NCBI GenBank assembly: GCA_963664225.1
Contig: OY760937.1
Location: 4,448,001 to 4,512,000 of the forward strand
DNA from: Verrucomicrobiia bacterium
Lineage (GTDB): Bacteria; Verrucomicrobiota; Verrucomicrobiia; Limisphaerales; UBA1319
Direction of reading: 5' to 3'
DNA length: 64,000 nucleotides
The stretch's first letter is position 1; each line of letters opens with the position of its first letter. The position numbers were made by a program, and so were the translations under genes. Below are positions 42,512-60,396 of the stretch, piece after piece. A model generated the notes under the pieces. That model ran no database searches. It was not told the DNA's origin and saw only the letters and a program-made list of their open reading frames with translations.

Positions 42512-42658
42512 GGCATTCTCATTAGCAAATCCTGTGCCCGTTGTCATCGTGCGAATCAACGGCCCCACGGCCTATTCAGGCCATGGAGACCGCAGATCGG
42601 GATTTCCGTGCTGCCCGTGAGGGAGCTGAAAATGACTCACTAGCAGCGCCACTGGCGC

Positions 42659-44168: not shown

Positions 44169-47100
44169 TTATCCGCCGCGTCGGTTCTCCTCAAACATTT
44201 CGACTGGCATCGGATGCTCCAGAAGCCAAACCATCTGGATCGGTCGCTCGGATTGGTGGCTGACGTAATCGGATGGTCCGAGGTATGTGAACGGAGCCGT
44301 GACCCCATTCACTTTCTTCAGTGATCGAACGAAGAAAAGCATCGTGTAGCCGCGTTCCTTGTGGTGGACAAGATTCTGACCAGTCTCGCTTGCGAGGCTC
44401 GTTTGCGATTGGCTTTCCCAATGCAACAACTCGCGACTGATAGGGTAGTCTTGATACATTGTGCTTGGAGAGAACTCTTTCTCCGTTTTCTGAAAGGTAA
44501 CCAATGAGACGATGGTTTTTATGTTTGGGAAGTGAAGCCAGCCAACGCCCGTGACACCCGCAGTCTCAAAGGTTGCTCCACCAAGCGCTGCTTTAATTTC
44601 ATCACTCCCGTAAGTGGCATGCAGTTCCAGCGGACATGGAAACGGGAGGTCAAGAGGTTTGCTTCCAACACAGGACTCATCGGCTGACCATTCCAACACT
44701 TCTTCAAGATCGCGTAGCACTGATGGATTCCGGGCAGCCCTCTGGAAGGATTCCTCGATATTCGCAATTCCCAACTTATGGCCCGGTTGTCCCCAGAGTC
44801 GATAGTGGGTGAGAACTGCAGAGTCTCCGGCCTCTGCGAGCGCTGCTTCCGGGTTTCCTGCTCTCAGATAAGTGACGACCTTCCGTAATCGAGCGATCTC
44901 GCGTGGTCCGGAAGTCTGCGCTGCGCTGATGAGTGAGTCCTTCAAGCGACCGATATCGGGGTCGGCCGGGATTTCGGTGAGACGGGCGCTAGCTTTCCAC
45001 TGAGACCAAGTCTTTCTGGAGAGGAGCGTTTCAGGTTCGTAGTCGTGAAAACGGACAAAGTTTCCGAATGTCAGTTGCTGCTGAGCTTCACTTTCAAACG
45101 ATTCCAATCGGTCAGGAACTTGATCAGCCAGATTGCGTAGGTTCTCGCGGATATTGGCCAACACATAATCACGTGCTAACCGGTCGAGTTGAATGCTGCA
45201 ACCGGCAGGTAGGTGTGGAAATTCCATTTCCACCTCCCGCAGGATATTGAACCGCCGCTTGCTTAGCAGAGCTTTAAGCTTGCGGTCTATTCGGTATTTG
45301 CGATGCGCCTGTCCAACGAAGTCCAGGACTGTCAGGCAATCCTTCTCGGGTGAATGACGCAGACCGCGGCCTAATTGCTGAAGGAACACAGTCAGACTTT
45401 CCGTGGGCCGAAGAAACAGAACGGTATTGACCTCCGGAACGTCGAGACCCTCGTTGAGCACATCCCGAGTAAAGAGGAAGCGGATCTTGCCGGCGCGAAA
45501 ATCATTCATTAAAGCCGTTCGGTCATCCGTGAGTGTTTCGCCAACCAACACTGCGGAAGTAATCCCACGCTCATTGAACTTTTCGGCCATGAATTCCGCG
45601 TGACGTACGGATACGCAAAATCCAATGCCGCGAACTCGGTCTAAATATGGCTCGTATCGGAGCAAAGAGCTGAGGACAACATCCACGCGCTGGAGAGCGA
45701 CAGCATGTGCGCCTGTGAAAACTTTCTCCAACTCTGCAACATCGTATTTTCCACTCCGCCAGAACTGGTCTCCTGCCAATGAAACGGGATCTGCAACGCC
45801 GAAGTAGTGGAATGGGCATAGGAGCTTTTCTTCCAACGCCTCGGGCAGTCGGATTTCGGCAGCGAAATGATTGTCAAAATCTGCTGCAACACTCGCACCA
45901 TCCATACGTTCTGGAGTTGCCGTTAATCCAAGAAGAATACGTGGATTGAATTGATCAAATATCGCTCGATAACTGGCAGCGGGACCGTGATGCACCTCAT
46001 CCACAATAATGAAGTCGAAAAAATCGGCTCCGACTTGCTCCCACAAGCGCCGAGTTCCGAGCATGTCCACCGAGCAAAATAGATGGTCGAAACGCGTAGC
46101 GACGTGGGGACCGCCCAGCAGTTCACCGAAATCTGGCGTTCGAAGCACCATGCGGAACATTGCGGCTGCTTGTTCCAAAATTTCGCGTCGATGCGCTACA
46201 AACAACAACCGGGCTTGGCGTTGATTGCTCAAATAGAACCGTTTGAAGTCGAATGCCGCGACGACCGTTTTTCCAGTTCCAGTTGCCGCAACGATGAGGT
46301 TCCTCCATCGGTTATGAACGCTGCGTTCAATTGCCAAAGCGTCGAGAATACGTTCCTGAAATGGATGGGGCGTCATGTCCACCAACAACGTGGAAATGAA
46401 GCCATTCTTACGACCCTGCTGAATCGCATCCCTCAGCACCATGGGTTCATCTGGATTGAATGGAATGAACTCGCGGCTGTTCCAGTACGTTTCAAACTCC
46501 GCTTTGAATTTCTCCAGAATGTGGGGCAGATCCTGATTTGTGATTTTCAGATTCCATTCCAACCCACTGGTCATCGCCGCATGTGACATGTTGGCAGAGC
46601 CAATGTATGCAGTCGAGAAACCGCTGTTGCGTTTGAAATGATATGCCTTTGCATGGAGGCGTGTTCGTGTGGTGTCGTAGGAAATGCGAATCGATACATT
46701 TGGAAGACGGGCCAGCCATTCGATAGCTTCTGGATCCGATGCGCCCATGTAGGAAGTCGTGATGATTCGTACAGGGACACCGCGACCAGCAGCTTCCTCA
46801 AACGCTGGCATCAAAAGTCGAAGCCCGGACCATTTAATGAAGGACACGAGCAAATCCACATAGTCCGCCGAGTGCATCTCGCTACCCAATTCATGGACGA
46901 GCTGTGGGTCGGATGGCGAGCCAGTGAACAAACTGCTTTCTGTGAGAGGCGTTTCAGGCCGTGGCAAGGCTCCTTGCGCGTAATGCGGAGGAGTAATTTC
47001 AAGGAGCACAGGTTTGTCAGAGGAAACGAGACGTCTGTTTTGAAGAAAAGCCGACGACGGACTACCTGCAATTCGCTCAATAATGTCATTGCACAGCCGC

Positions 47101-47294
47101 ATCCGTGTGGCTGTATCACTTTCAAGACGCAGAGCCTTCACTAACAGCTTCGATAGAAAAGCGGCATAGCGTGCCGGTTCTTCCTCTGAGTCGAGTTTAC
47201 CAAAAACCGAACGTAACTCCGGGTGTCGATCAAGAATGGATTGTAGATCCTCGTCAAGGAGCGCTTCATAGATGCCTTGGGCAGGGATTGTCAT
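44169..47294 (-). CDS. PLD nuclease-SF2 helicase-DUF3427 protein (SauUSI-like type IV restriction enzyme candidate)
   Basis: LHAKAY...IGSANMS PLD motif; ATGTGKT, DEVHH, GLTATPERMDG, NEGLDVP and QQLGRGLR; C-terminal YQDYPIS..LHWESQS. Confidence 0.88.
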   Translation of the reverse strand: MTIPAQGIYEALLDEDLQSILDRHPELRSVFGKLDSEEEPARYAAFLSKLLVKALRLESDTATRMRLCNDIIERIAGSPSSAFLQNRRLVSSDKPVLLEITPPHYAQGALPRPETPLTESSLFTGSPSDPQLVHELGSEMHSADYVDLLVSFIKWSGLRLLMPAFEEAAGRGVPVRIITTSYMGASDPEAIEWLARLPNVSIRISYDTTRTRLHAKAYHFKRNSGFSTAYIGSANMSHAAMTSGLEWNLKITNQDLPHILEKFKAEFETYWNSREFIPFNPDEPMVLRDAIQQGRKNGFISTLLVDMTPHPFQERILDALAIERSVHNRWRNLIVAATGTGKTVVAAFDFKRFYLSNQRQARLLFVAHRREILEQAAAMFRMVLRTPDFGELLGGPHVATRFDHLFCSVDMLGTRRLWEQVGADFFDFIIVDEVHHGPAASYRAIFDQFNPRILLGLTATPERMDGASVAADFDNHFAAEIRLPEALEEKLLCPFHYFGVADPVSLAGDQFWRSGKYDVAELEKVFTGAHAVALQRVDVVLSSLLRYEPYLDRVRGIGFCVSVRHAEFMAEKFNERGITSAVLVGETLTDDRTALMNDFRAGKIRFLFTRDVLNEGLDVPEVNTVLFLRPTESLTVFLQQLGRGLRHSPEKDCLTVLDFVGQAHRKYRIDRKLKALLSKRRFNILREVEMEFPHLPAGCSIQLDRLARDYVLANIRENLRNLADQVPDRLESFESEAQQQLTFGNFVRFHDYEPETLLSRKTWSQWKASARLTEIPADPDIGRLKDSLISAAQTSGPREIARLRKVVTYLRAGNPEAALAEAGDSAVLTHYRLWGQPGHKLGIANIEESFQRAARNPSVLRDLEEVLEWSADESCVGSKPLDLPFPCPLELHATYGSDEIKAALGGATFETAGVTGVGWLHFPNIKTIVSLVTFQKTEKEFSPSTMYQDYPISRELLHWESQSQTSLASETGQNLVHHKERGYTMLFFVRSLKKVNGVTAPFTYLGPSDYVSHQSERPIQMVWLLEHPMPVEMFEENRRGG

Positions 47295-48028: not shown

Positions 48029-49981
48029 ATGAAAACACCCCATCTGCTGTGCCTGGCCATCGCTGCGGCTGCCGTCAGCGCCTCGGCCACGGAATTTCAT
48101 GTCGCTCCCACAGGCAACGATGCCAGCCGGGGAACCCGGAAAGCTCCCTGGCGCACCATCCAGCACGCCGCCGATCTCGCGCAACCCGGCGATGTCATCA
48201 CCGTGCATGCGGGCGTTTATCGCGAGCGCATCAATCCACCGCGCGGCGGCACGTCCGAGCGCAAGCGCATCGTCTATCAGGCGGCCCCGGGCGAGAAGGT
48301 CGAGATCAAGGGTTCCGAAGTCGTCACGAACTGGACGAAGGTGCAGGAGGATGTCTGGAAGGTGACGCTGCCCAATTCATTTTTTGGAAACTTCAATCCC
48401 TTCAACGACCTGATCCATGGCGACTGGTTTGCGCGCCGTGACCGCGATCATCACACAGGCGCGGTCTATCTGAACGGCGAGTGGTTGATCGAATCGGCGA
48501 CGATGGACGAAGTCCTGAGGCCCCTCGGACCAATCCCGCCCTCGGTGAGCCAGGGAAACGTGGCCGCCATGCCCGATCCACGGCTCTGGTTTGCCAAGGT
48601 GGATGCGAACAACACCACCATCTGGGCGCAGTTCAAGGACGTCGATCCCAACACGCAGTTGACCGAGATCAATGTGCGTCGCACCGTTTTTTATCCCGAT
48701 CAACCCGGCCGGAATTACATCACCGTGCGCGGTTTCATCCTGCGGCAGGCCGCCACACCCTGGGCGCCGCCGACCGCCGAACAGATCGGCTTGATCGGCA
48801 CGCATTGGAGCAGGGGATGGATCATTGAGAACAACGTGGTGAGCCACTCGACGTGCTCAGGCATCTCGCTCGGCAAACACGGCGACGCACATGACAACAC
48901 CTCCGCTGACACCGCTGAGGGATACGTCAAAACCATCGAGCGCGCCCATGCCCATGCCATCGCCTGGACCCCCGTAAACATCGGCCATCACATCGTGCGC
49001 AACAACACCATCTCCCATTGCGAACAGGCCGGCATCGTCGGCAGCCTGGGGGCGATGTTCAGCACCGTCACCGGCAATGACATCTACGACATCCATTATC
49101 GGCGGCTCTTCACCGGCGCGGAAATGGCCGGCATCAAGATTCACGCGGCGATTGACACCCTCATCCAGGGTAACCATATCCATCGCACCTGCCGCGGCCT
49201 CTGGCTCGACTGGATGGCGCAGGGAACGCGCGTCACGGGCAATCTCTTCCATGACAACGCCTATGAAGACCTCTTCGTGGAAGTCAACCACGGGCCGTTC
49301 ATGGTGGATAACAACCTGTTCCTTTCCGGCACGAGCCTTACGGATATGTCCGAGGGCGGCGCCTACGTGCACAACCTGTTCACCGGCGTGATTTCGAGCA
49401 CCCAGGAGGCCGAGCGGCAAACGCCTTACCACCCCGCGCATCAGACTTCCATTGCGGGAATGAGCGACCTCAAGGGCGGCGACAATCGTTTCTATAACAA
49501 CCTTTTTGTCGGCAATGGCAACGGCCCTGGCGAAGTGGTCAAGGGTGACAAGCGCCACTACCGCGTCAATGGCTATGGACTCTGGGTCTATGACACCCGG
49601 GCCTACCCGCTCGAGACCGGCGGCAACGTCTCCCTCCATCACGCCCAGGCCTATGCCAGGGAAACCACCCCGCTCGTGCTCATGGATTACGATCCGCAGG
49701 TCAAACTGGTGGAGCAGGGCGATCAGTTTATTTTGAACCTGACCTCCTGCCCGGAGTTAAAGCAGGCCCGCACGACCGTTGTCACCACCGCATTGCTCGG
49801 CAAAGCCCGGATACCCTACCTGCCTTACGAGAGCGTGACCGGTTCCCGCTTGAAAATCAGCACCGACTACCTCGGCCGGAAACGCAGCACAACGCATCCC
49901 ACCCCCGGCCCCTTCGAGAATCCCGGAACGGAGGCGTTTGCCCCGGTGGTCTGGGGGCCACACGGAGTGGTTGCGCCGTAA
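48029..49981 (+). CDS. Beta-helix glycoside hydrolase, GH120 beta-xylosidase-like
   Basis: EFHVAPTGND...PWRTIQHAA, GVYRE, NSFFGNFNP, GAVYLNG, WAPPTAEQIG, AGIKIH, LWLDWMAQG and FVEVNHGP; signal peptide. Confidence 0.85.
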   Translation: MKTPHLLCLAIAAAAVSASATEFHVAPTGNDASRGTRKAPWRTIQHAADLAQPGDVITVHAGVYRERINPPRGGTSERKRIVYQAAPGEKVEIKGSEVVTNWTKVQEDVWKVTLPNSFFGNFNPFNDLIHGDWFARRDRDHHTGAVYLNGEWLIESATMDEVLRPLGPIPPSVSQGNVAAMPDPRLWFAKVDANNTTIWAQFKDVDPNTQLTEINVRRTVFYPDQPGRNYITVRGFILRQAATPWAPPTAEQIGLIGTHWSRGWIIENNVVSHSTCSGISLGKHGDAHDNTSADTAEGYVKTIERAHAHAIAWTPVNIGHHIVRNNTISHCEQAGIVGSLGAMFSTVTGNDIYDIHYRRLFTGAEMAGIKIHAAIDTLIQGNHIHRTCRGLWLDWMAQGTRVTGNLFHDNAYEDLFVEVNHGPFMVDNNLFLSGTSLTDMSEGGAYVHNLFTGVISSTQEAERQTPYHPAHQTSIAGMSDLKGGDNRFYNNLFVGNGNGPGEVVKGDKRHYRVNGYGLWVYDTRAYPLETGGNVSLHHAQAYARETTPLVLMDYDPQVKLVEQGDQFILNLTSCPELKQARTTVVTTALLGKARIPYLPYESVTGSRLKISTDYLGRKRSTTHPTPGPFENPGTEAFAPVVWGPHGVVAP

Positions 49982-50539
49982 GGTCGTTTGAGAATTCCGA
50001 ATAGGTTCTGCGGTGAGGGGATGTCGTGGCCTGGACTTGCGCTAGCCGGCCCACTCCAGCCCGTGCTGTCGCATTACGGCCCTACGGGTCTTGGAATCGT
50101 TGTTCCCTTTGAATTAATCCCGGCAACTCACGCTTCAGGATATCAATGGGATCAAGGCGGATCGCATTATGCTGCCGGGGTTTCCGTGCTTTGCAAGCGC
50201 CGTGCTGAAGATTCGTGGTAAACGGTGGCGTCTCATTCATCCCTTCCAGTCGCGTGTGGAGAGATGTCGGGATGCAACAATGTTTCAGGGCAAAAAAAAG
50301 TCCCCCAGCCCATCGAAGTTCTGAATGGGCGGGTGCGCCTTCTTGGAACCATGCATTTTCAGGGTTGGCGACCGTTCATCCTTTTGAGCAAAGTTTTTCA
50401 TTGCGGACAGGCGTTGTCGAAGGGAAAAGCGTCAGATTAAAGGATCAGAGCAATAACTCGCAAGTCGATGCTGCGAAGGGAGGAAACGTGGGAAGACCTC
50501 CGATGGTTTGACAGGCAACCCGCCAAGACCGGCTTTCAT

Positions 50540-50860
50540 TTAAAATCGCCACTTTTAACAACACGTTTGCATTGCCAATACAATAAGAAAACATAATGAC
50601 AATATATGCCATACTATTGGCACGATACGTGTAGCGCATCAGAAGGTGAAAAAAGTAGTCTGGCGCGCATGTATATAAATCGCATAAAAGCCTGCTATTA
50701 CTGGCCAATAGCAGCATCATGGCAGCATGACGAGAATGATGATACATACAAAATAAAAGTTTTAAAAAGCAATATAAAATAAAAAATTAAAAAACAAATA
50801 TGTCCCGTTTTGAAGCGTAATATTCCAACAATAAGACACTATAATGTTACAGTTACCATT
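50540..50860 (+). promoter_or_regulatory. AT-rich upstream region of the hydrogenase operon
   Basis: Sharp AT enrichment with A tracts in a GC-rich genome; TATAAT near 50840. Confidence 0.45.
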
Positions 50861-50988
50861 AATCGGTGTCTGGCTGAAGGCTGTCTTTGCTTATGCGTGA
50901 TATTACAAAGTCTGCTTCCAGATGACTCATTTCCGGCTCCTGTGATTGAACAACCGATAACCACCCATAACTCTTCAACACCACTGTT

Positions 50989-51960
50989 ATGAATATAACC
51001 CGACGAAGTTTTCTAAGTTACTGCACCCTGTCCGCAGCGGCGCTTGGCCTGGATGCGCACAAATTGCGTTTCCTTTCAGAGGCCCTGGCCAATCCCAGCG
51101 CGCCAACGGTCATCTGGCTCATTGGGGCCTCCTGCAACGGCTGCTCAGTGTCGTTGCTCAATCGTTTTTCCGACAAGGCCGGCGAGCCTGCGGATGTGGC
51201 GGGAGTGCTGACCGGCGCGATCAACCTGGTTTATCATCCAGTCATCATGGCGGCGGCGGGTGAAACTGCCGTGTCGGCTCTCAAGCAGGCCTATAACCGG
51301 GGCAACTATGTTCTGGTGGTCGAAGGGGCGATACCCACGGCTTTCGGCGGCTACACTTGCGGAGTCTGGAACTACAACGGCCAGGACGTCACAATGCAGC
51401 AGGCGGTCCAGGAATTGACCGCCCGGGCTCTGGCCACCGTATGCGTGGGCACCTGCGCGAGTTTCGGCGGCATTCCGGCCTCAGGTTCGAATCCCACGGC
51501 CGCAATGGGCGTGCATCAATTTACGGGTCGGCCCACCATCAATCTCTCAGGGTGTCCGGTCAATCCCGATTGGATCGTCTGGGCGGTGGTGCAATTGTTG
51601 ACGGGCACCCCGGTCACGCTGGATGCGGATGGCCGTCCCTCCGCGCTTTACACCACGAGCTTCAGCGGGGCCGCCGAAGCTGCCATCATCCATGACAAGT
51701 GTCCCCGCAATCCGGCCAACACCGGCACGCTTGAGGCGGTCAATTTCGGGGAAAACGGCCATTGTTTGAAGGCCCTGGGCTGCCGTGGACCGGCCACCAA
51801 GTCGCGCTGTCAGGCGGCCTGGAATGGAATCGGAGGCCATGTGGCCCCGCAACTGCACCCGGGCCACTGGTGCATTGAGGCCAACGCCCCCTGCCAGGGC
51901 TGCGTTGAAAAGACCTTCCCGGGATCCCAACCGTTCCACGAGCCCTACATCCCGGCCTAA
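50989..51960 (+). CDS. [NiFe]-hydrogenase small subunit, Tat-exported, group 1a-like
   Basis: TRRSFL Tat motif; SCNGC, GTCASFGG, GCP, HDKCPR, CLKALGCRGP and WCIEANAPCQGC; no C-terminal transmembrane helix. Confidence 0.93.
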   Translation: MNITRRSFLSYCTLSAAALGLDAHKLRFLSEALANPSAPTVIWLIGASCNGCSVSLLNRFSDKAGEPADVAGVLTGAINLVYHPVIMAAAGETAVSALKQAYNRGNYVLVVEGAIPTAFGGYTCGVWNYNGQDVTMQQAVQELTARALATVCVGTCASFGGIPASGSNPTAAMGVHQFTGRPTINLSGCPVNPDWIVWAVVQLLTGTPVTLDADGRPSALYTTSFSGAAEAAIIHDKCPRNPANTGTLEAVNFGENGHCLKALGCRGPATKSRCQAAWNGIGGHVAPQLHPGHWCIEANAPCQGCVEKTFPGSQPFHEPYIPA

Positions 51961-52023: not shown

Positions 52024-53487
52024 ATGCCAGTCATTACTGCCGCAATAGACCCGATCACCCGCATCGAAGGGCACATGAAGGTCGAGGTCAAAATCGACAC
52101 CATAAACGGCGTTCAACAAGTCGTTGACGCCAGCGCCATCGGAACGCTGTTTCGCGGTTTCGAGAAACTGCTCGAGGGCCGTGCGCCCCGGGACGCCACA
52201 ATCATCACCTCCCGCATCTGTGGAGTGTGCCCCACTTCACACGCCATGGCTTCCGCGCTGGCGCTGGATAGCGCCTATGGTGTCAATGGGGACACACCCA
52301 GCAGAACGGCCTCCCGTTTGCTGAGAAATCTGGTGCATGGCGCATGCTTCCTGGAGTCGCACATCCTGCACTTCTATCTTCTATCGTTGCCGGACTATAT
52401 CTCCGGGGTGCCGATGGCGCCCTGGCTGCCCGGTTGGGAAGTGGGAAAACGATTTGATACCGCGACGGTGAATCGGTTCACAGGCAATTTCCTGGCCGCG
52501 ATCACCGCGCGTCGAAACGCCCATGAAATGGGCGCCATCTATGGCGGCAAACTGCCGCATTCCCCCGCCTATATCGGTGGTGGCGGTTTTACCTCCATTG
52601 CCTCGAACGCCAGCACCACCGCCTTTCAGGCCTATCTGACCGACCTGCTGAACTTCATTCAAACCAAATACATTCCGGATGCGGAGTTGCTGGCCAATCT
52701 CTACAGCGATTATTTTCTGCTGGGCAGGGGCTATGGAAGCCTCATGGCTTATGGCGTGTTCGAACAGGACAACTCCACCAGCCCACAACTGCTCCTGAAA
52801 CGGGGCCGTGTGGTGAACGGTACCTCCACAGTCCAGGCGGTCGATGTCTCACAAATCACGGAGCAACTTCGCTATTCCTGGTATGCCAGTGCCGATAATC
52901 AGAATCCCGCCGTCGAAGACACGGTGGCCCAATACCCGAAAGCCGAGGCCTATTCCTGGCTCAAGGCGCCCCGGTATGGTGGCGCGCCCTATGAAGTGGG
53001 TCCGCTGGCCCGCATGACCGTCAATGGCGATTACACCAACGGCGTTTCCGTGATGGACCGGCATCTGGCCCGGGCTCGTGAGGCGCTCAAGATCGCCCAG
53101 GCCATGCAGGCGTGGCTCAACGCGCTGACATCGGGCCAAAGCGCGTACACGGATGCACCCAAACCGGCGAGTGCCACCGCCATGGGTTTAACCGAGGCGC
53201 CGCGCGGGGCCTTGGGCCACTGGCTCCAGGTATCCAACAGCACGATCTCCAAATATCAGATCGTCACCCCAACCTGCTGGAATGTCTCGCCCAAGGACAG
53301 CTCCAACCAGCATGGGCCTCTGGAGCAGGCACTCATCGGCCTGCCCGTGGTCAACATCGACAAGCCCATCGAGGTATTGCGCGTGGTGCACTCATTCGAC
53401 CCGTGTCTGGACTGTGCGACGCACGTAACCCGGGCGGAGCCGGGCGCCAGGGTGTTCGTTCCAGGTGGATTGCCGGTGAAAAACTGA
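52024..53487 (+). CDS. [NiFe]-hydrogenase large subunit
   Basis: DPITRIEGH, RGFE, L1 RICGVCPTSH, YSWLKAPRY, EAPRGALGHW and L2 DPCLDCATH followed by a 20-aa cleavable tail. Confidence 0.96.
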   Translation: MPVITAAIDPITRIEGHMKVEVKIDTINGVQQVVDASAIGTLFRGFEKLLEGRAPRDATIITSRICGVCPTSHAMASALALDSAYGVNGDTPSRTASRLLRNLVHGACFLESHILHFYLLSLPDYISGVPMAPWLPGWEVGKRFDTATVNRFTGNFLAAITARRNAHEMGAIYGGKLPHSPAYIGGGGFTSIASNASTTAFQAYLTDLLNFIQTKYIPDAELLANLYSDYFLLGRGYGSLMAYGVFEQDNSTSPQLLLKRGRVVNGTSTVQAVDVSQITEQLRYSWYASADNQNPAVEDTVAQYPKAEAYSWLKAPRYGGAPYEVGPLARMTVNGDYTNGVSVMDRHLARAREALKIAQAMQAWLNALTSGQSAYTDAPKPASATAMGLTEAPRGALGHWLQVSNSTISKYQIVTPTCWNVSPKDSSNQHGPLEQALIGLPVVNIDKPIEVLRVVHSFDPCLDCATHVTRAEPGARVFVPGGLPVKN

Positions 53488-53508: not shown

Positions 53509-54051
53509 ATGAAGCAAGAAATGGCGAATCAGTTCATGCCTCAACACTCCCGAAAGGGGGAGCCGTCTCGTTTCCTGATTGCCGGCGTGGGAAACGAATT
53601 GCTTTGCGACGATGGCGTGGGAATCCATGCGATCCGGGAATTGCAGCGTGAACCCATTCCCGGAGTGACGATGGTGGATTTGGGCACGGCCATCCTCCAC
53701 GGTCTCGGCTTCCTGGAAGCGGCCGACCGGGTGCTGGTCATCGACGCAGCCAAAGGGGGCCAGGCTCCGGGCACCATTTACCTCTTTGAAGCGGGCGTGA
53801 ATACTCAGGCCCAACCCATGACCTCTGTCCATTCAATGGGCCTGCGCGAAGCCGCCGGCTTGTTGATGGCGGGTCAGGCTCCCCCGATGACCGTGCTGGG
53901 CGTTGAACCGGAATCCTTCAAATACTCCATGTCCCTGTCGGATCCGGTGCAGGCGGCCGTGGCACGCGTGGTTTCCCTGGCCCGGGAGACCATCACGGCA
54001 TGGCGACAGGCCGAACGAAATGAAGAAATGGCTGTTCCAGCCGAAGTATAA
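53509..54051 (+). CDS. Hydrogenase maturation protease (HyaD/HybD family)
   Basis: GVGNELLCDDGVG, DLGT, IDAA..G..PGTIY, SVHSMGL and LGVEP. Confidence 0.92.
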   Translation: MKQEMANQFMPQHSRKGEPSRFLIAGVGNELLCDDGVGIHAIRELQREPIPGVTMVDLGTAILHGLGFLEAADRVLVIDAAKGGQAPGTIYLFEAGVNTQAQPMTSVHSMGLREAAGLLMAGQAPPMTVLGVEPESFKYSMSLSDPVQAAVARVVSLARETITAWRQAERNEEMAVPAEV

Positions 54052-54095: not shown

Positions 54096-57000
54096 GTGAA
54101 AAATATTCTGAAACTGATGGGCGCCATATTACTCGGCGCAATACTGACCCAGGGGGTCAGTGCGGCAACGACCGATGGCACTGCCACCCTCAATGTGACG
54201 CTGACGGATCCTGCGGGCAATTACAACCGGCGTGTCGATGCGTTTTGGATCACCGATGGCACGGGCCGATTCATTGTGACCGTGCGCAAAGACGCGGCGT
54301 CTGAGCAGGCCTACCTCTACCAATGGAACACCGCCCGCGGGACATCCACGGTGGTGGATGGCTACAGCGGCGCCACAATCACCACCTGGACGCCGATGTC
54401 CGTGCCTTGGAATGGCCGGGACGCCAACAATGTGCTGGTGCCCGATGGCAACTACCGGTTTTACGCTGAGTTTACCGATCATAACGGACAAGGTTGGTGG
54501 ACCACCAACGGGCTAGCCTTCACCAAAGGCGCCAGCGCCTACACCACCAACTATCCCGCGCTGCAATACCTGACCGCCATGTCCGTCACTTATGCCCCGG
54601 TGGCCGTGGTGCATGACATTGCGGTGACCAGCATGACTCCCAGCACGGCTGTGGCCAACACCACCGTGGCAGTACAGGTTGGAGTGACCAATCGAACCGC
54701 CAATGCGGAAACCTTTAGCGTGATCCTGAGCAACGCCACCAGCGGGGTTGTCGTCGGCACACAGACGGTCACCTCTCTGGCTGGCAACGCGGCCTCCAGC
54801 GTAACCTTCCAATGGAATACCGCCGGTTTGCAGGGCAATTACGCCTTGCGGGCAACGGCGGGTCCTGTGACTGGCGAAACCAGCACTGCGGATAATAGCT
54901 ACACCAACACCGTTGCCGTGCAACCCCTGGTCCACGATATCGCCGTCACCAGCATGGCTCCCAATACGGCCCAGGCGAACACCACTGTTTCGGTTCAAGT
55001 TGGCGTAACGAATAAGACCGCCAATGCGGAGTCTTTTAGCGTGACACTGAGCAACGTCACCACCGCAACCCTCATCGGCACACAGACCGTCGGCGCGTTG
55101 GCGGGAAATGCAACCACAAGCGCCGCATTCGCATGGAATACCGCTGGTTTGCAGGGTAATTACGTTCTGCGTGCGGTGGCCGGGCCCGTGACTGGCGAAA
55201 CGATTACTGCGAACAACAGTTTCACGAACACTGTCGCTGTGCAGTCTGTGGCTCATGATATCGCGGTGACCAGCCTATCGCCCAGCCTGGCGCTTCCAGG
55301 CACAAACGTCACCATCACTGTAGGGGTCACCAACCTCACAATAAACACCGAAACCTTCTCGGTAGTGCTGAGCAATCTCACCTCCGCCTCAAGGATCGGC
55401 ACGCAGCAGATTACCGCTCTGGCCGGCAACAGGACTACCAGTGCAACCTTCCAGTGGAGCACCACCAACCTGTCTGGCAATTATGTCCTGCAGGCCAGCG
55501 CCGGTCCAGTGACCGGGGAAACCGCCACGACTGACAATACGCGCACCAGTACGGTGGCTGTAAGGAGCTTGATTCATGATGTGGCCATCGCCGCCATAAA
55601 CGTCCCGGCCCTGGTTTCACCCAACAGCACGGCCACTATTTCGGTGCTGGCAACCAATGCCGGGGAAACCGCCGAGTCGTTTGGGGTGCAATTATTTGAC
55701 GACACCGACGCACGCGCCATCGGCGGGACCTACCAGGTCAGCAATCTGGCAGTGGCAGCCACCCTGAACGTGCCTTTCACCTGGAGCACCACCAACAGTT
55801 CGCTCGGCGTCCACACCCTGAGGGCCGTGGCCGTCGCGGTCACTGGTGAAACCGCTCTTGCCAACAATACCAAATCCGCAGCCGTGACCGTGCAGACGGT
55901 CAACCATGATGTGGCGATTGCCACAATTCTTGCGCCAACGTTCGTGGCACCCAATGGGACCGCCACAATTTCCGTGGTGGCCACAAACCTCGGCGCGGTG
56001 GCCGAATCCTTTGGTGTTCAACTGCTCGACGACACCGATGCGCGCACCATTGGCGCCACTTACCAAGTCACCAATCTGGCCGTCGCTGCGGCAGTCAATA
56101 TACCCTTCACCTGGAAGGCCACCAACAGTTCCCTCGGCTATCACATGTTGCGCGCCGTGGCCAATCCCGTGTCTGGCGAAACGACCCTGGCCAATAACAC
56201 CAATACCGTCAGGGTTGCGGTCGCGACAGGCTTGGGCACCAACACCTACATCGCCAAAGCCAGTCCCTGGCGCTATAATGACCAGGGACTGGACCTGACA
56301 CAGACCCCGTGGCGCCTACCCGATTATTATGACGCCACCTGGAGCCTGGGTGCCGCGCCATTGGGTTACAGCGCGAACAGCAGCTTAACCAATCTCACCA
56401 CCCGGCTGAGCTGGGGACCGGTCGCGACAAACAAATACCCCACCTATTATCTGCGGCGGGAATTCTATGCGGACGTTTTGCCCGCTGCGATGACCCTTAA
56501 CATGCGATGCGTGGACGGAGCCATCCTCTACCTCAACGGTGTTGAGCTGACCCGTCAAAATATCGCCTGGTCCATGGGCTATTCGGACCTTGCGGATGCG
56601 CCGGTGACGGGAACAAACCGTTATACTTACGTCTCGACGAGCCTGGTTCCCACCAATGTGGTTCTGGGCCGAAACGTCCTGGCGGTGGAATTGCATCGGG
56701 CGGACCTGACGGGTTCAGGCCTGGCGTTTGACCTCGAAATGATTGGAACCGCGCCTCAAGCCACTGCCAAACACCTGGTGGACACGATTAGCATGACCAC
56801 CTCCGGGAGCGCGATTCTGGGCGACCAACTGCCGGTATCGGTCACCGTGACCAACCGTGGAAATGTCACAGAGTCCGTGCAAGTGTTTCTCAAGAACAAT
56901 ACGACAGGCCAGATTATTGGTTCTCAAACCATTACCAGCCTGGTTCCGGGAGGCACCACTTCGATCAATTTCGACTGGGGCACTCTGGGGGCCAATAATG

Positions 57001-59243
57001 GCGCAAACAGCCTGACGGCCTACACGGTCGTGGGTGGGGTCACCAACATGGCTGGTTCCTATACCAACACCGCACTCATCAGCGGTACGGGTTTTGTCAC
57101 CAATCCCGTCAACACAACTGCAACCATCGGGGGCCGGTGTTTCGCGATGGCAACCGCTTCCGGCCACTTGCTCGTTGGTTCCGGAGCGACACTCGAAATA
57201 TGGGATGTCAGCCATCCATCCTCACCCGTCCGGCAAGGGGCCGTGCGTTTGCCAGGATTGATTCAGGATATTGCCGCCACCGAGTCTTACGCTTACGTCG
57301 CCTGCGGCTCGGCCGGCGTCCAGTTCGTGGATCTGCATTCGTCCTCCCAGCCCATTCATCGACGCACGCTCAATACCGCCGGCAATGCCTACTCAGTGGC
57401 GGTGAGCGGAAGCTATTTGTATGTGGCTGACGGCAATGCGGGCCTGCGCATCGTCAACATTTCGAGTCCCTCCAGTCCCTCGATGGCTGGAGTGTATTAC
57501 ACCTCGGGACCGGCCCGGGCCGTTGCCGTTTCCAACAGCCGTGCCTACCTCCTCGACCAGCAGCAGGGTTTGTTGATTCTTGATGTGTCGAGCCCAAGAA
57601 CTCCGTCGCTCCTGGGTGTTTACCCCAACTTCGATGCGGGCGTGGCCCTGGCGGTTTCCAGTTCGTATGCATACCTGCTGGATGCCAATAATCACTTCGC
57701 CATCGTCAACGTCTCCACTCCGGCGAGTCCGACATTAAGCGGTTCGCTCATTTTGACGAACATGATCGGTCAGAGCATTGCCGTGAATGGTTCACGAGCT
57801 TATGTTTCGGCCGGAGTCAGCGGTTTGGTGACCATCAATGTCTCCACACCCTCGGCTCCCACGATCGTTTCAACCACTGCCATGCCGGGTGAAGCGGGGG
57901 AAATAGCGCGTTCCAGCTCGACCCTCTATGTGGCTGACGGCTTTGCCGGATTCCAGGTGTTCAATGTCTCTTCATCGTCGGCACCATCGCTCCAGGCGGA
58001 TTACCCGACTGCGTTGCGGGCAACCGATGTGGCCATCACCAACAATCTGGCGTATGTGGCTGCGGGTGAAAGCGGTTTGCGAATCTTCTCGCTGACCAAT
58101 GCCGGTTCGCCAGCGCTCCTCGGCCGGTTCACCGGAGCGGCCAACGCCCGCGCGGTGGCCGTTTCAGGTTCCCGCGCTTATGTGGGTGACGGGCCCAATG
58201 GTTTGAAAATTGTCAATGTCGCCAACCCGGCGGCCCCCACGTTATTGGGCAGCTATACGAACTCGAAGCTGGGCAGCATCCGTGATGTCGGAGTATCTGG
58301 TTCGCTGGTGGTGGTGAGCGATGGACGAACCATGCTCCTGCTGGACGCTTCCACCTCATCGAGGCCAACCCTGGTGGGCACGTATAACACACCGGCCTTC
58401 GCGTTCGCGATGACCGTAAACAACAACCGCGCCTATGTGGCTTGCGGCAAGGCCGGCCTGGTGATTCTCAATGTTTCTCGCAGTTCATTCGCCACCCTGG
58501 GCAGCCTGGTCATGCCTTCGCTGGTAAACGACGTTTCCGTTGCCGGCACCTCAGCCTATCTTTCAGGACCCGTCGGAGGCTGGTGGACCGTCGATGTTTC
58601 GACTCCGTCGGCGCCCCATCTGGTGCAGAGCGCCACCGGTCAGGGAGCCATCATGGGTCTGGCCGCTCTGGGCACCAACGTCGCAGTCCTGACCACGACC
58701 AATTATCTGGTTACAATGAACGCTTCGGTGCCATTGAGGCCGGTATCCATGAAATCCTTCGGACCGTTGGTTGGCGCGATCCGGCTGGCCGTCAGCTCGA
58801 ACTTCGTGGCCTCTGCAGAAGATGAAGCAGGCTTGGGCCTGTTTGCCGTGGCTTTTGGCGGCGGATCGAGCCGGAGCCTGGAACTGGATTCGTTCGTGGC
58901 AAAGAGTGTGGGTGCTGAAAGCGGCCCAGTGCTGCTCGGCGCATCACTGGCTGTAGCTAATCCTGCGGCGGGCACTTTAACGCCTGCCGCGCAGGTTTCG
59001 CCAGCCTCGACTGCCACGGATGCCGCATCGACGAATGCGAACTTCACACTGCACTGGCAGAGCGTGGCTGGTCAGACTTACACCGTCTATCGTTCGACAG
59101 ATCTCAAGGGTGGATTCACCCCATTGCAGACTCACATACCGGCGACGCCGCCAACGAACGTCTTTATCGATCCTGTCGCGCATGATGCGGCCTTCTATAT
59201 GATCGTGATCGAGGAAACGGGTGCCGCGCCAGCGAATCAATAA
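54096..59243 (+). CDS. Giant secreted protein: DUF2271-like flavinylation domain, CARDB-like repeats, LVIVD repeats, C-terminal domain
   Basis: GTG start and signal peptide; AFWITD..GRFIVTV...DGYSGAT...WNGRD..PDGNY; five HD(I/V)A repeats of 107-110 aa; many AYVA....GL.I.NVS.P..P LVIVD units; W.SVAGQTYTVYRSTDL...FY tail. Confidence 0.85.
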   Translation: MKNILKLMGAILLGAILTQGVSAATTDGTATLNVTLTDPAGNYNRRVDAFWITDGTGRFIVTVRKDAASEQAYLYQWNTARGTSTVVDGYSGATITTWTPMSVPWNGRDANNVLVPDGNYRFYAEFTDHNGQGWWTTNGLAFTKGASAYTTNYPALQYLTAMSVTYAPVAVVHDIAVTSMTPSTAVANTTVAVQVGVTNRTANAETFSVILSNATSGVVVGTQTVTSLAGNAASSVTFQWNTAGLQGNYALRATAGPVTGETSTADNSYTNTVAVQPLVHDIAVTSMAPNTAQANTTVSVQVGVTNKTANAESFSVTLSNVTTATLIGTQTVGALAGNATTSAAFAWNTAGLQGNYVLRAVAGPVTGETITANNSFTNTVAVQSVAHDIAVTSLSPSLALPGTNVTITVGVTNLTINTETFSVVLSNLTSASRIGTQQITALAGNRTTSATFQWSTTNLSGNYVLQASAGPVTGETATTDNTRTSTVAVRSLIHDVAIAAINVPALVSPNSTATISVLATNAGETAESFGVQLFDDTDARAIGGTYQVSNLAVAATLNVPFTWSTTNSSLGVHTLRAVAVAVTGETALANNTKSAAVTVQTVNHDVAIATILAPTFVAPNGTATISVVATNLGAVAESFGVQLLDDTDARTIGATYQVTNLAVAAAVNIPFTWKATNSSLGYHMLRAVANPVSGETTLANNTNTVRVAVATGLGTNTYIAKASPWRYNDQGLDLTQTPWRLPDYYDATWSLGAAPLGYSANSSLTNLTTRLSWGPVATNKYPTYYLRREFYADVLPAAMTLNMRCVDGAILYLNGVELTRQNIAWSMGYSDLADAPVTGTNRYTYVSTSLVPTNVVLGRNVLAVELHRADLTGSGLAFDLEMIGTAPQATAKHLVDTISMTTSGSAILGDQLPVSVTVTNRGNVTESVQVFLKNNTTGQIIGSQTITSLVPGGTTSINFDWGTLGANNGANSLTAYTVVGGVTNMAGSYTNTALISGTGFVTNPVNTTATIGGRCFAMATASGHLLVGSGATLEIWDVSHPSSPVRQGAVRLPGLIQDIAATESYAYVACGSAGVQFVDLHSSSQPIHRRTLNTAGNAYSVAVSGSYLYVADGNAGLRIVNISSPSSPSMAGVYYTSGPARAVAVSNSRAYLLDQQQGLLILDVSSPRTPSLLGVYPNFDAGVALAVSSSYAYLLDANNHFAIVNVSTPASPTLSGSLILTNMIGQSIAVNGSRAYVSAGVSGLVTINVSTPSAPTIVSTTAMPGEAGEIARSSSTLYVADGFAGFQVFNVSSSSAPSLQADYPTALRATDVAITNNLAYVAAGESGLRIFSLTNAGSPALLGRFTGAANARAVAVSGSRAYVGDGPNGLKIVNVANPAAPTLLGSYTNSKLGSIRDVGVSGSLVVVSDGRTMLLLDASTSSRPTLVGTYNTPAFAFAMTVNNNRAYVACGKAGLVILNVSRSSFATLGSLVMPSLVNDVSVAGTSAYLSGPVGGWWTVDVSTPSAPHLVQSATGQGAIMGLAALGTNVAVLTTTNYLVTMNASVPLRPVSMKSFGPLVGAIRLAVSSNFVASAEDEAGLGLFAVAFGGGSSRSLELDSFVAKSVGAESGPVLLGASLAVANPAAGTLTPAAQVSPASTATDAASTNANFTLHWQSVAGQTYTVYRSTDLKGGFTPLQTHIPATPPTNVFIDPVAHDAAFYMIVIEETGAAPANQ

Positions 59244-59280: not shown

Positions 59281-60396
59281 ATGCGAGCTTCAGGTCTCAA
59301 CATGAACCGGTGTACACGGAGCGCGGGACGCATGACCCGCAGCTCCGTTCAATTCATCCTCCTGCTTGGATGGGTGTCAATTCTGGCACCCATCCTTTCC
59401 CTCCCGGTACGTGGTGCCGATTTTCCGCTCATTTCCTGGCAGGGCCAGACCATGGGGTCCACGTACACCGTGAAAATCGTGGACGCCCAACTTGCCGAAC
59501 CGACAGTGGAGGCCTTAAAGCTTGAAATCGAGCGGTGCCTGAAGGAAGTCAATCGTCAGGTGTCGCATTACCAACCGGAGAGTGAATTATCACGGTTCAA
59601 CCGTTCACCTGCGAACACCCCTTTTAAAGCCTCCCCGGGTTTCTTCCGCGTCCTCCAGCATAGCCTCGAATTGAACCGTCAATCGCAAGGCGCCTTTGAT
59701 CCCACGCTGGGACCACTCATCGACCTGTGGGGATTTGGCGCGAAGACTAACAACAAGGCAGTGCCGACCGACGCGCAAATCTCGGAGGCGAAGAAACTCT
59801 ACGGTTGCCAGCACCTCTCTCTGACCGCCAACGGGGAAATCCTCAAAGACATTCCGGAACTGCGCCTAAACCTCAGTTCCGCCGGCAAAGGTTTTGGCAC
59901 CGATGAAATGGCGCGCGTTCTTCGAGCACATGGCTTGACGAACATTTACGTCTCCATCAGTGGCGATGTCTTCACCCAGGGACACAATGCCCAAGGCAAA
60001 AAATGGCAGGTGGGCATTTCAGCTCCAATGCCCGATTGGAGTCCCGGAGATCCACTGGTCACGGTGCTCTCTGTATCGGGACAGGCCGTTTCCACATCGG
60101 GCGATTATCAGAAATATTTGATCGACGCCCAGGGACGGCGTCTTGGCCATATCTTCGATCCGAAAACCGGCTGGCCTGTTCAGCATAATCTGGCGGGCGT
60201 CTCGGTGGTGGCCGGGGATTGCATGACTTCCAGTTCCCTGGCCACGACACTCTTTGTGCTTGGGCCGGATGAAGGACTTCGATTCATTGAATCCCGGACC
60301 AATGCCGCCGCACTATTCGTGGTCCAGGATGCCGATCATAAATTCCAATCGATCCCCAGTTCTCGGTTTAAGGTCATGACCGGATATCAGCCGTGA
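59281..60396 (+). CDS. apbE: FAD:protein FMN transferase
   Basis: TMGS, SELSRFN, GAFDPTLGPL..LWGF, KG..TD, WQVGI, STSGDY and HIFDPKTG; start may be at 59332. Confidence 0.92.
   Translation: MRASGLNMNRCTRSAGRMTRSSVQFILLLGWVSILAPILSLPVRGADFPLISWQGQTMGSTYTVKIVDAQLAEPTVEALKLEIERCLKEVNRQVSHYQPESELSRFNRSPANTPFKASPGFFRVLQHSLELNRQSQGAFDPTLGPLIDLWGFGAKTNNKAVPTDAQISEAKKLYGCQHLSLTANGEILKDIPELRLNLSSAGKGFGTDEMARVLRAHGLTNIYVSISGDVFTQGHNAQGKKWQVGISAPMPDWSPGDPLVTVLSVSGQAVSTSGDYQKYLIDAQGRRLGHIFDPKTGWPVQHNLAGVSVVAGDCMTSSSLATTLFVLGPDEGLRFIESRTNAAALFVVQDADHKFQSIPSSRFKVMTGYQP

Follow-up and report, generated by a model that had tools for sequence, protein, structure and literature searches.

In uncultured Verrucomicrobiota, an exported hydrogenase without a membrane or cytochrome partner consistently adjoins a gene encoding a secreted stalk protein, which carries a predicted flavin site at its N-terminal tip. 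This cassette suggests an undescribed route for electrons between H2 and something outside the cytoplasm. We put at about even the chances that the FMN-bearing tip is the dedicated extracytoplasmic electron partner of the hydrogenase, probably displayed on the cell surface.

Organization of the cassette

In the window, by which we mean the whole 64,000-nt stretch of DNA that was analyzed, the cassette genes follow one another on one strand in the order hydS-hydL-protease-stalk-apbE, with intergenic gaps of 21-63 nt and with apbE starting 37 nt downstream of the stalk gene (Table 1). This context, with the hydrogenase upstream and apbE downstream of the stalk gene, was absent from the preliminary description of the DNA and constitutes the main finding. 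A scan for promoters and terminators returned chance levels (9 versus 5.2 ± 2.6 promoters and 10 versus 11.7 ± 3.8 terminators), and no island was visible in GC content.

Table 1. Features of the cassette, in positions of the whole 64,000-nt window.
Feature	Position	Strand	Details
[NiFe] hydrogenase small subunit	50989..51960	+	323 aa; Tat signal TRRSF
[NiFe] hydrogenase large subunit	52024..53487	+	487 aa; L1 RICGVC, L2 DPCLDCATH
Hydrogenase maturation protease (HycI family)	53509..54051	+	180 aa
Secreted stalk protein DUF2271-CARDB-LVIVD	54096..59243	+	1715 aa; GTG start
Predicted Sec signal peptide of stalk protein	54096..54164	+	residues 1-23; no lipobox Cys; read by eye
Divergent DUF2271 domain	54165..54602	+	residues 24-169
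DGYSGAT, predicted ApbE flavinylation motif	54357..54377	+	acceptor T94 codon 54375-54377
Five CARDB Ig-like repeats	54612..56216	+	about 107-110 aa each
Conserved middle domain of stalk protein	56223..56750	+	no Pfam or NCBIfam match
Sixth CARDB-like repeat	56772..57092	+	between middle domain and LVIVD part
LVIVD repeats (beta-propeller type)	57093..58865	+	about 590 aa
C-terminal domain of stalk protein	59028..59213	+	62 aa, five-strand; candidate export/sorting domain
ApbE (FAD:protein FMN transferase)	59281..60396	+	371 aa; PF02424 276 bits

Linkage of hydrogenase and stalk genes

Across two samples of 401 genomes each, the link between hydrogenase and stalk is one-to-one in both directions, and 19 further loci were recovered. 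In the order sample, 9 of the 29 fetched non-self matches belonged to cassettes, no hydrogenase being present within the DNA fetched around the other 20, and the reverse search returned 10 small subunits with at least 61% identity, located exactly in those genomes plus G000. The phylum sample yielded 10 cassette loci, spread over 9 genomes, and its 10 non-self small subunits with at least 59% identity were exactly those of the cassette loci. A single-protein scan provided 2 more loci, and a metagenome scan found the L2 motif DPCLDCATH in 3 of 80 loci, all 3 with a DUF2271 gene; in all, 25 cassette loci are known.

The cassette large subunits (20 full-length) form a single clade with a FastTree support of 100, in a tree that contains no named reference sequences. 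The genomes harboring the cassette are kin rather than independent trials, and shared ancestry alone can hold genes together. A correlation between hydrogenase and tip identities (r of 0.5-0.6) was set aside as evidence of contact, since shared descent yields the same r. An apparent protease-DUF2271 fusion (P0037) was likewise discarded; it presents a signal-like stretch in mid-protein and is probably a read-through or a frameshift.

A group-1a-like hydrogenase without a membrane anchor

Judging from its sequence, the hydrogenase is group-1a-like, and its signal motif predicts export via Tat. Three Fe-S clusters find their ligands in the small subunit; the medial site reads W-C, like that of NiFeSe-type enzymes, and this pair aligns with 2wpn_A. 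The subunit stops 18 aa past the last CxxC and therefore has no membrane tail; this stretch spans 12-19 aa in 22 of 22 small subunits. Several features of group 1a [NiFe] enzymes are present: a Tat signal and no anchor on the small subunit, the L1 and L2 nickel motifs, and NiFeSe-like cluster ligands. The large subunit has Cys, not Sec, in L2 and a 20-aa cleavable extension, and the motif DPCLDCATH recurs in 114 of its best 120 relatives. The best solved-structure matches are the periplasmic NiFeSe enzymes 5jsu, 2wpn and 1cc1 (E of 6e-110 for the large and 2e-47 for the small subunit), and the NCBIfam NiFeSe models NF033181, NF045518 and NF045520 scored below their cut-offs (536.7 < 600, 471.5 < 780 and 209 < 470, respectively).

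Neither a cytochrome b nor a HybA/B gene is part of the cassette, and its small subunit has no membrane tail; such a gene and such a tail, which mark the operons of membrane-bound uptake hydrogenases, are present at the separate Hyb-type locus of the same genome (L044). No match to the cytochrome c3 family was obtained in the genome, which is 96% complete, and no PepSY-like membrane protein occurs among the cassette genes of the window or the scanned neighbors; in L113, a PepSY-like cluster does accompany DUF2271 proteins of other forms. Elsewhere the genome encodes multiheme cytochromes, a NapH-like/FMN_bind pair and a member of the cytochrome b family, and the presence of these other possible electron partners counts against the tip as a dedicated one. 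A prediction of the complex between both subunits and the DUF2271 tip, for which controls were not folded, scored 0.00 and counts neither for nor against a contact.

A predicted flavinylation site at the tip of the stalk

The preliminary description had recognized the motif VVDGYSGAT at 54351-54377, with T94 as predicted acceptor, in a DUF2271-like domain right behind the signal peptide. Its coordinates are correct and the motif is encoded in the ORF 54096-59243(+); the numbering of the acceptor holds (S91-G92-A93-T94), and the segments AFWITD, WNGRD and PDGNY all fall inside residues 24-169, directly behind the N-terminal signal. This signal is uncharged and ends, by eye, in VSA followed by A; a KD of 1.6 is reached only in windows that begin at residue 4 or 7. 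The proposed Pfam check did match DUF2271, but below the cut-off (E = 0.002, 18.3 bits versus 27.3), and only with residues 24-168 alone; the full-length protein gave no match to Pfam DUF2271 (PF10029). The assignment is clearer among relatives. Of 100 scanned proteins, picked from 146 new matches of the tip search, DUF2271 is listed for 95 with an E of at most 0.001, and 84 exceed the gathering score. Two cassette members, L097 (33.6) and L104 (48.7), lie above the Pfam cut-off, and the best Atlas matches of the tip are DUF2271 clusters at 0.91/0.90. At the level of sequence, these results support a repeat stalk that starts, at its N-terminus, with a DUF2271-like acceptor domain for ApbE, in which T94 is the likely site.

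Taken alone, the flavinylation motif [S/T]GA[S/T], as defined in PMC8238504, is at chance level, occurring 0.98 times per composition-shuffled copy of the stalk protein, and a second SGAT is found at residue 1029; D-x2-[ST]GA[ST] is expected 0.026 times in the shuffled protein. We count the tip motif as real, and reject a chance match, because of its position-specific conservation and not because of the four letters alone. The conservation of SGAT in homologs, on which the preliminary description had made its claim depend, was borne out, with [ST]GA[ST] at the same position in 14 of 14 long homologs. Moreover, neither D88 nor T94 varies in any of the 20 cassette domains compared, although their mean identity is about 45%. 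The variants in these domains are [ST]GAT (14), [ST]SAT (5) and AGST (1), the L069 copy (DGTAGST) being degenerate.

The structural model of the tip is a predicted beta-sandwich in which a helix-plus-strand insert bears the motif (pLDDT 94). Fold searches with this model did not single out a clear relative: FlgD comes first both in Foldseek (E = 0.017, TM about 0.4) and in VIA (3osv, Z of 7.2, rmsd 2.3, 82 aligned), where C2 domains and the C-terminus of PorU score equally, and the matches that either program listed for the model do not include any solved structure of a DUF2271 or FMN-binding fold. An identity with FlgD was rejected, since the match spans only the WNGRD-PDG segment; the long FlgD-repeat matches returned by the tip search were also dismissed, the full domain being missing from them.

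An apbE gene in the cluster and an [S/T]GA[S/T] motif, two features that mark ApbE-flavinylated DUF2271 proteins, are both present and predict flavinylation of the tip. Among the 19 loci with readable downstream DNA, apbE lies directly after the stalk gene in 12 and is missing from that place in 7; in 4 of the genomes where it does not adjoin the cassette, a copy occurs elsewhere. The cassette ApbE retains the His of HIFDP and has Ser in place of Asp in the C-terminal metal-binding motif. By an indirect mapping, this Ser occupies the position of T. pallidum ApbE D284, mutation of which abolished FMN transfer (PMC4436053). The same change is seen in L096 and L052, that is, in 3 of 11 aligned cassette ApbEs when that of this genome is included, and the two other ApbEs of the genome retain the metal-site Asp. 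The metal-site Ser, the degenerate motif of L069 and the loci with non-adjacent apbE all count against the preferred reading of the tip as electron partner.

Stalk architecture and probable location

The fusion of the tip to long surface-type repeats, another element of the preliminary description, was confirmed by strong Pfam matches to CARDB (6 stretches) and LVIVD behind the DUF2271 domain. Its view that DUF2271 proteins are mostly small or ApbE-fused was overstated. DUF2271 on surface-type proteins is no rarity in this subfamily: a T9SS sorting domain is present in 35 of the 100 scanned tip relatives, PEP-CTERM, dockerin or Ig stalks occur in others, and one protein (P0016) combines three motif-bearing DUF2271 copies. 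Across cassette forms the stalk measures 1400-2100 aa, and homologs have between 1 and 9 CARDB repeats ahead of the middle domain, which may be jelly-roll-like. The stalk protein contains no CxxCH and no hydrophobic stretch past the signal. A multi-cofactor wire was rejected, given the lack of CxxCH and the single conserved motif; a stalk without cofactors and with 1 to 9 repeats argues for a tether or spacer rather than a wire.

The C-terminal domain of the stalk protein is common to about 100 secreted-looking ORFs of the genome and sits at the C-terminus in 102 of its 111 carriers there, which are mostly large surface-type repeat proteins. It has no Pfam or NCBIfam match, the literature search returned nothing on it, and the best match of its structural model, an fn3-like one with a Z of 6.0, falls short of an assignment. 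Provided that the rest of the reading holds, this domain most likely places the stalk protein on the outer surface, a location to which we give somewhat better than even chances and which is drawn only from the domain shared with about 100 secreted-looking proteins. The placing of the flavin away from the envelope, put forward in the preliminary description, is likewise putative. A search for SprA gave no match here, and likewise none in any control genome. The N-glycosylation sequon ratio was dropped as a surface marker, its values being uninformative (1.38 for the stalk, 1.39 and 0.81 for the cassette large and small subunits, 1.1-1.8 for other large subunits).

Location is also where a fully periplasmic relay would differ. 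Tat delivers proteins no farther than the periplasm, and the FMN could there serve as a swinging arm by which electrons of an uptake hydrogenase reach membrane carriers from other loci (NapH-like complex, multiheme cytochromes, cytochrome b), in the manner of the H2 respiration usual for group 1a. Such carriers are present in the genome. HydDB describes group 1a as periplasmic electron input for respiration (PMC5037454), and the clusters characterized in PMC8238504 mostly pair DUF2271 with a PepSY-like membrane partner. We nonetheless deem this relay distinctly unlikely: the C-terminal domain is of the kind borne by large surface-type repeat proteins, relatives of the tip end in T9SS, PEP-CTERM or dockerin tails, up to 9 repeats stand ahead of the middle domain, and, with flanking genes that vary between loci, no membrane component is conserved beside the cassette.

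Other tips at related anchor-less hydrogenases

In four related loci (L118, L172, L175 and L192), an anchor-less hydrogenase is followed by a secreted protein with a single CxxCH. These heme-motif tips echo the flavin/cytochrome swaps presented in section 17 of PMC8238504. Tips with no evident cofactor, either propeller-like (L077, L081, L083) or FGE-like (L121, L122, L164, L168), also occur, and other anchor-less relatives (L078-L080, L084, L119, L120) have no such stalked protein. Tips with no evident cofactor and missing stalked proteins both count against the electron-partner reading, and the former are what would be seen if the stalk were a scaffold or adhesin first, docking, displaying or helping to export the hydrogenase, or gluing the cell to nearby particles, with the flavin secondary and not an electron partner. 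That several related hydrogenase lineages precede unrelated stalked secreted proteins, that Ig-like or propeller repeats make up about 90% of the stalk protein, and that the L069 motif and three ApbE metal sites have changed all agree with such a role. It is made unlikely by the invariance of the acceptor Thr and Asp, by the frequency with which apbE comes next and by the four heme-motif tips.

Proposed electron route

In the preferred reading, with the FMN tip as electron partner, the hydrogenase dimer would be matured by its own protease and then exported folded via Tat, and the stalk protein would leave via Sec. An ApbE would place FMN on T94 of the N-terminal DUF2271 domain, by analogy with the tested DUF2271 of PMC8238504, and the FMN tip would stand where other group 1 enzymes have a cytochrome. 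Electrons may then pass from the distal [4Fe-4S] cluster to the FMN tip and on to an extracytoplasmic acceptor or, in the reverse direction, the tip may feed H2 evolution, the stalk acting as a tether or spacer. A circuit of H2, hydrogenase, FMN and acceptor would therefore need no membrane conduit of its own. Its tie to the cell could be H2 that diffuses to other hydrogenases of the same cell, or multiheme cytochromes encoded separately, and its likely use, speculatively, an H2 sink or electron outlet of a fermenting anaerobe or microaerobe. That a single flavin is unable to wire a stalk devoid of cofactors counts against this reading.

The same components could instead consume H2 in the reduction of O2 or other oxidants at the cell boundary, by way of an autoxidizable flavin and with no energy conserved. 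Reduced flavins react with O2 and the cassette has no coupling subunit, which suits such a shield; however, the Fe-S clusters follow the pattern of NiFeSe-like enzymes, which are typical of anaerobes, and no catalase or peroxidase is evident among the neighboring ORFs, judged by their N-termini. Even with the protective role that HydDB gives as possible for group 1f (PMC5037454), we find a shield highly improbable.

A bolder form of the preferred reading, which we advance as doubtful, is a diderm whose outer surface hosts a redox circuit based on H2. The Tat-exported hydrogenase would cross the outer membrane, work with the stalk-tip FMN and trade electrons with minerals, humic matter or neighboring cells, with H2 itself connecting the circuit to the cell. 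The stalk would be exported through a Verrucomicrobiota C-terminal sorting domain, and the flavin would be a tip that can be exchanged for heme or others within a general hydrogenase-plus-stalk design. Verrucomicrobiota express extracellular electron transfer machinery and cycle H2 in peat, according to bioRxiv 10.64898/2026.05.27.727921, in whose main text the word "flavin" is absent. If real, a surface flavin outlet or inlet for H2 would bear on the fate of fermentation H2 in habitats of this kind and on competition with methanogens.

Comparison with known systems

No description of the cassette was found in the literature searched, although the supplementary cluster tables of PMC8238504 may list such clusters. 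The word "hydrogenase" is absent from the main text of PMC8238504 and from PMC11334425, the parts of PMC11323493 consulted do not link hydrogenases to ApbE flavinylation, and the only match for DUF2271 with hydrogenase concerns Alteromonas iron uptake. If the preferred reading is correct, the flavinylation systems known so far are joined by one linked to a hydrogenase. A candidate electron partner would then also be available for exported hydrogenases without cytochrome b or c3 that form a large clade, of at least 120 clusters at 90% identity.

With the PepSY-like/DUF2271 ApbE-substrate systems described in PMC8238504, the cassette shares a DUF2271-type domain, the [S/T]GA[S/T] motif, a signal peptide and apbE in the cluster. 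It differs from them in that the domain belongs to a divergent subfamily and caps a stalk of 1400-2100 aa where theirs sits in a small protein, in the lack of a PepSY-like, NapH-like, MsrQ-like, DsbD or NQR/RNF-like membrane partner, and in its tie to a hydrogenase. Group 1a periplasmic [NiFe]/[NiFeSe] enzymes (5jsu, 2wpn, 1cc1) have in common with it the Tat signal, the missing membrane tail, the medial-cluster Cys and the short large subunit. In contrast to these, the cassette enzyme has Cys instead of Sec, sub-cut-off NCBIfam NiFeSe scores and its own L2 motif; the genome yielded no cytochrome c3, cytochrome b is missing from the cassette, and a flavin-site stalk is co-encoded.

The extracellular [NiFe] hydrogenase MIC/Foh of Methanococcus maripaludis (PMC6181927, PMC11452385), likened here by description only, is also encoded in a compact island of small subunit, large subunit and maturation protease, is Tat-exported, has no membrane electron partner and has been proposed to be anchored through neighboring surface proteins. 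Unlike the cassette, it is archaeal, has no outer membrane to cross and comes with its own TatA/TatC, and the passages of both papers that describe it mention no flavinylated partner or apbE. Finally, the flavinylated respiratory modules of PMC8238504 such as Listeria FrdA, in which an FMN domain replaces a cytochrome, and the multi-flavinylated cell-wall proteins of the same paper share the use of a covalent FMN domain where relatives use heme c. Those systems have FMN_bind domains fed by a membrane carrier, whereas the cassette would combine a hydrogenase with a DUF2271 flavin domain and, usually, a single predicted site on a cofactor-free stalk.

Stalk protein and its DUF2271 tip

The flavin-acceptor motif of the preliminary description, VVDGYSGAT, lies where it was placed, at residues 86-94 of a 1715-aa stalk protein with six CARDB stretches and LVIVD repeats (Pfam, full length). 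The proposed DUF2271 assignment held in part: residues 24-168 alone returned a match (E = 0.002, 18.3 bits), but the cut-off of 27.3 was not reached. Searching 1.84 billion representatives with this N-terminal tip gave 1019 matches at E ≤ 0.001, and a Pfam scan of 100 of the 146 new relatives (a set excluding FlgD-repeat false matches, fragments and some long forms) listed DUF2271 for 95, 84 above its cut-off and 11 under; three were without DUF2271 among the matches listed, and two had no match. The tip's Atlas neighbours are DUF2271 clusters (0.91, 201 shared features), and its model (pLDDT 94) is a beta-sandwich with the motif on a helix and strand insert. By sequence comparison, the tip is a divergent DUF2271 domain.

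In a protein as rich in Thr, Ser, Gly and Ala as this one, chance would produce the bare four-letter motif about once; for the form with Asp at -6 the expectation is 0.026. A search among longer proteins returned 14, all with CARDB and LVIVD, and all 14 carry [ST]GA[ST] at the same position. Asp and Thr are invariant across 20 tips of the hydrogenase cassette described below (14 [ST]GAT, 5 [ST]SAT, 1 AGST). For one DUF2271 protein, the cognate ApbE is reported to attach the flavin to the Thr of the same motif (PMC8238504), and the site predicted here, T94, is very probably genuine.

CARDB repeats ahead of the unnamed middle domain number from 1 to 9 across cassette homologs. Among database proteins, P0016 (955 aa) carries three motif-bearing DUF2271 tips at intervals on an Ig stalk and P0044 two such copies along an Ig stalk; both look like multi-flavin versions of this architecture. 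A T9SS sorting domain was present on 35 of the 100 scanned relatives, alongside PEP-CTERM, dockerin, PKD and Ig tails or repeats, and export tails often accompany this DUF2271 subfamily. The stalk protein's own last 62 residues were recovered by iterated search in 111 ORFs of the same genome, in 102 of them at most 30 aa from the C-terminus. Most carriers are large and look secreted, a few of them containing CxxCH, and the modelled domain has five strands and no membrane helix. It has no Pfam or NCBIfam model and matches Verrucomicrobiota clusters without a name. These features suggest a sorting domain, a candidate Verrucomicrobiota C-terminal export signal.

A hydrogenase cassette

The stalk gene stands in a cassette with both subunit genes of a [NiFe] hydrogenase (hydS, hydL), a protease gene and apbE, separated by gaps of 63, 21, 44 and 37 nt. 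Neither cytochrome b nor any other membrane gene occurs in the window's cassette, and the small subunit ends 18 residues past its last CxxC. The closest solved structures are periplasmic NiFeSe enzymes; the window's hydrogenase does not reach the NCBIfam NiFeSe cut-offs and has Cys at the Sec position. HydDB describes group 1a as periplasmic and including NiFeSe variants. Promoter consensus matches upstream of hydS were no commoner than by chance, and the three upstream genes in the table showed no conserved adjacency to the cassette at other loci.

Features of the window in and around the cassette
Feature	Position	Strand	Remark
LTD/LamG/CotH protein	38765-42568		upstream
1041-aa protein	44169-47294		upstream; nuclease- and helicase-like motifs by eye
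GH120-like beta-helix protein	48029-49981		upstream
AT-rich non-coding DNA	50500-50988		directly upstream of hydS; likely promoter region
Hydrogenase small subunit	50989-51960	+	Tat motif
Hydrogenase large subunit	52024-53487	+	
Maturation protease	53509-54051	+	
Stalk protein	54096-59243	+	
VVDGYSGAT motif	54351-54377		
C-terminal domain	59028-59213		last 62 residues
apbE	59281-60396	+	downstream of stalk gene

Linkage of stalk gene and hydrogenase

In the order sample the tip was matched in 26 of 401 genomes, and the cassette was present at 9 of the 29 fetched non-self matches. The other 20 encode shorter or differently built proteins, 15 adjoining apbE, with no hydrogenase in the DNA fetched there. 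The reverse search matched the small subunit in 33/401 genomes; the ten sequences with at least 61% identity belong to the window's own genome and the same nine cassette genomes. In the phylum sample (27/401 genomes with a tip match), 23 of 32 non-self places were fetched, the nine excluded being ORFs of 171-239 aa, and yielded 10 cassette loci in 9 genomes, exactly the 10 non-self small subunits with at least 59% identity. Stalk gene and hydrogenase are thus linked one-to-one in both samples.

Cassette loci total 25, including L096, L097 and three of 80 metagenome loci. One (G157) is spread over two contigs (L047, L123), five end with their contig before the LVIVD part (L048, L099, L102, L131, L155), L098 lacks the protease, and L100 has two stalk genes. 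The large-subunit gene of G124 (L050:5870-7335) is frameshifted and split over three frames, through assembly error or decay. All 20 full-length large subunits from the cassette fall in a single clade with support 100 (FastTree, 44 rows without named references; partial rows and L121/L122 excluded), and share the nickel motif L2 = DPCLDCATH, found in 114 of the best 120 database relatives. Flanking genes differ among loci. Because the cassette genomes are kin, the linkage reflects co-inheritance over a long time, not independent trials. The finding is this genomic context rather than the motif alone, and a functional link between tip and hydrogenase is probable.

The ApbE partner

Of the 19 loci whose downstream DNA could be read, 12 have apbE directly after the stalk gene, and four genomes lacking an adjacent copy encode ApbE elsewhere (a check covering genomes other than G124). 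The window ApbE reads TSSSLAT for the TADGLAT of solved ApbEs; the ApbEs of L096 and L052, the two nearest relatives in the tree, share this Ser in place of the metal-binding Asp, and eight other cassette ApbEs keep Asp. This Ser appears to match D284 of the T. pallidum enzyme, mutation of which is reported to have abolished FMN transfer (PMC4436053). The window ApbE scores the D284A entry slightly higher than wild type; an Asp-bearing ApbE scores it 3.6 bits lower. Since the genome encodes two further ApbEs, flavinylation could still occur. The Ser-variant genes (in the window, L096:17627-18712 and L052:6137-7219) are intact in all three genomes, and with co-varying changes near the KG motif this sub-lineage may have altered activity.

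Related loci and the role of the tip

Sister anchor-less hydrogenases differ in the gene that comes next. Tat enzymes precede unrelated secreted stalk proteins with propeller-like repeats plus MBG (L077, L081, L083), with an FGE-like domain plus Big_9 (L121, L122, L164, L168) or with a single CxxCH (L118, L172, L175, L192); others have no such stalk gene (L078-L080, L084, L119, L120). Those sister loci whose tips are cofactor-free favour a stalk protein serving as scaffold for the hydrogenase; heme-motif tips at others favour a redox function of the tip. A neighbouring lineage (L141, L185) has L2 = DPCLDCAAH and a differently built DUF2271 protein.

In the order sample, L085-L093 form a separate hydrogenase clade, ordered hydL-hydS, whose large subunit lacks a C-terminal extension and whose next gene bears CxxCH, with an MCPsignal match in the two scanned (L092, L093); L094 and L095 have Ser/Thr kinase and/or DUF4405 genes in its place. 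The L085-L093 hydrogenases are possibly H2-sensing chemotaxis enzymes. Shorter DUF2271-like proteins with DGY[ST][ST]AT lie beside a related apbE, with no hydrogenase adjacent, at L053, L057, L059, L061-L068 and L070-L072; at L057 the protein is a fusion with a multiheme cytochrome. At L113, as scanned, the PepSY-type apbE cluster includes a beta-barrel and a small DUF2271 protein, and L114 has the same gene order; in each a stalked DUF2271 protein comes next (5 and 20 Big_9 repeats), without a match to the motif pattern.

Given the observed gene set, motifs, linkage and absence of anchors, we propose that the mature hydrogenase dimer would be exported by Tat (hypD is present in the genome), that FMN would be attached to T94 and exchange electrons with the distal cluster, and that the stalk protein would be displayed at the surface. 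The tip as direct electron partner of the hydrogenase, in this surface-leaning form, has roughly even chances; a scaffold role is unlikely, a periplasmic relay rather doubtful, and a shield against oxidants quite improbable. As there is one flavin and the stalk is without cofactors, conduction along it is not possible, and therefore a local circuit is likely, in which electrons would run in one direction or the other between H2 and an acceptor outside, by way of enzyme and flavin. Coupling to the cell could run via H2 and other hydrogenases (a Hyb-type and three further large-subunit loci in the genome) or via separately encoded multiheme cytochromes, among them the DmsE-like and MtrC-like proteins described next.

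The same genome encodes, at L209:365-5323, a 9-heme protein, a DmsE-like 7-heme protein and a 758-aa ORF ending YRF, a possible porin, the three together possibly making up a porin-cytochrome conduit; an MtrC-like 10-heme protein (L213:279-2762); and multiheme proteins with Ig stalks (L209, L210, L212, L213 group). The cytochrome c3 family gave no match in this genome (96% complete); seven matches to secretins point to a possible way across the outer membrane.

Comparison with known systems

Parts of the cassette are already known; the whole was not found in print. The word hydrogenase is absent from the main text of both flavinylation surveys, and no DUF2271-hydrogenase link was found in the literature searched, which for the surveys means their main text. 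In working, and with no membership in either implied, the cassette would most resemble the extracellular MIC hydrogenase of Methanococcus combined with the flavin-for-cytochrome swap of the PMC8238504 systems.
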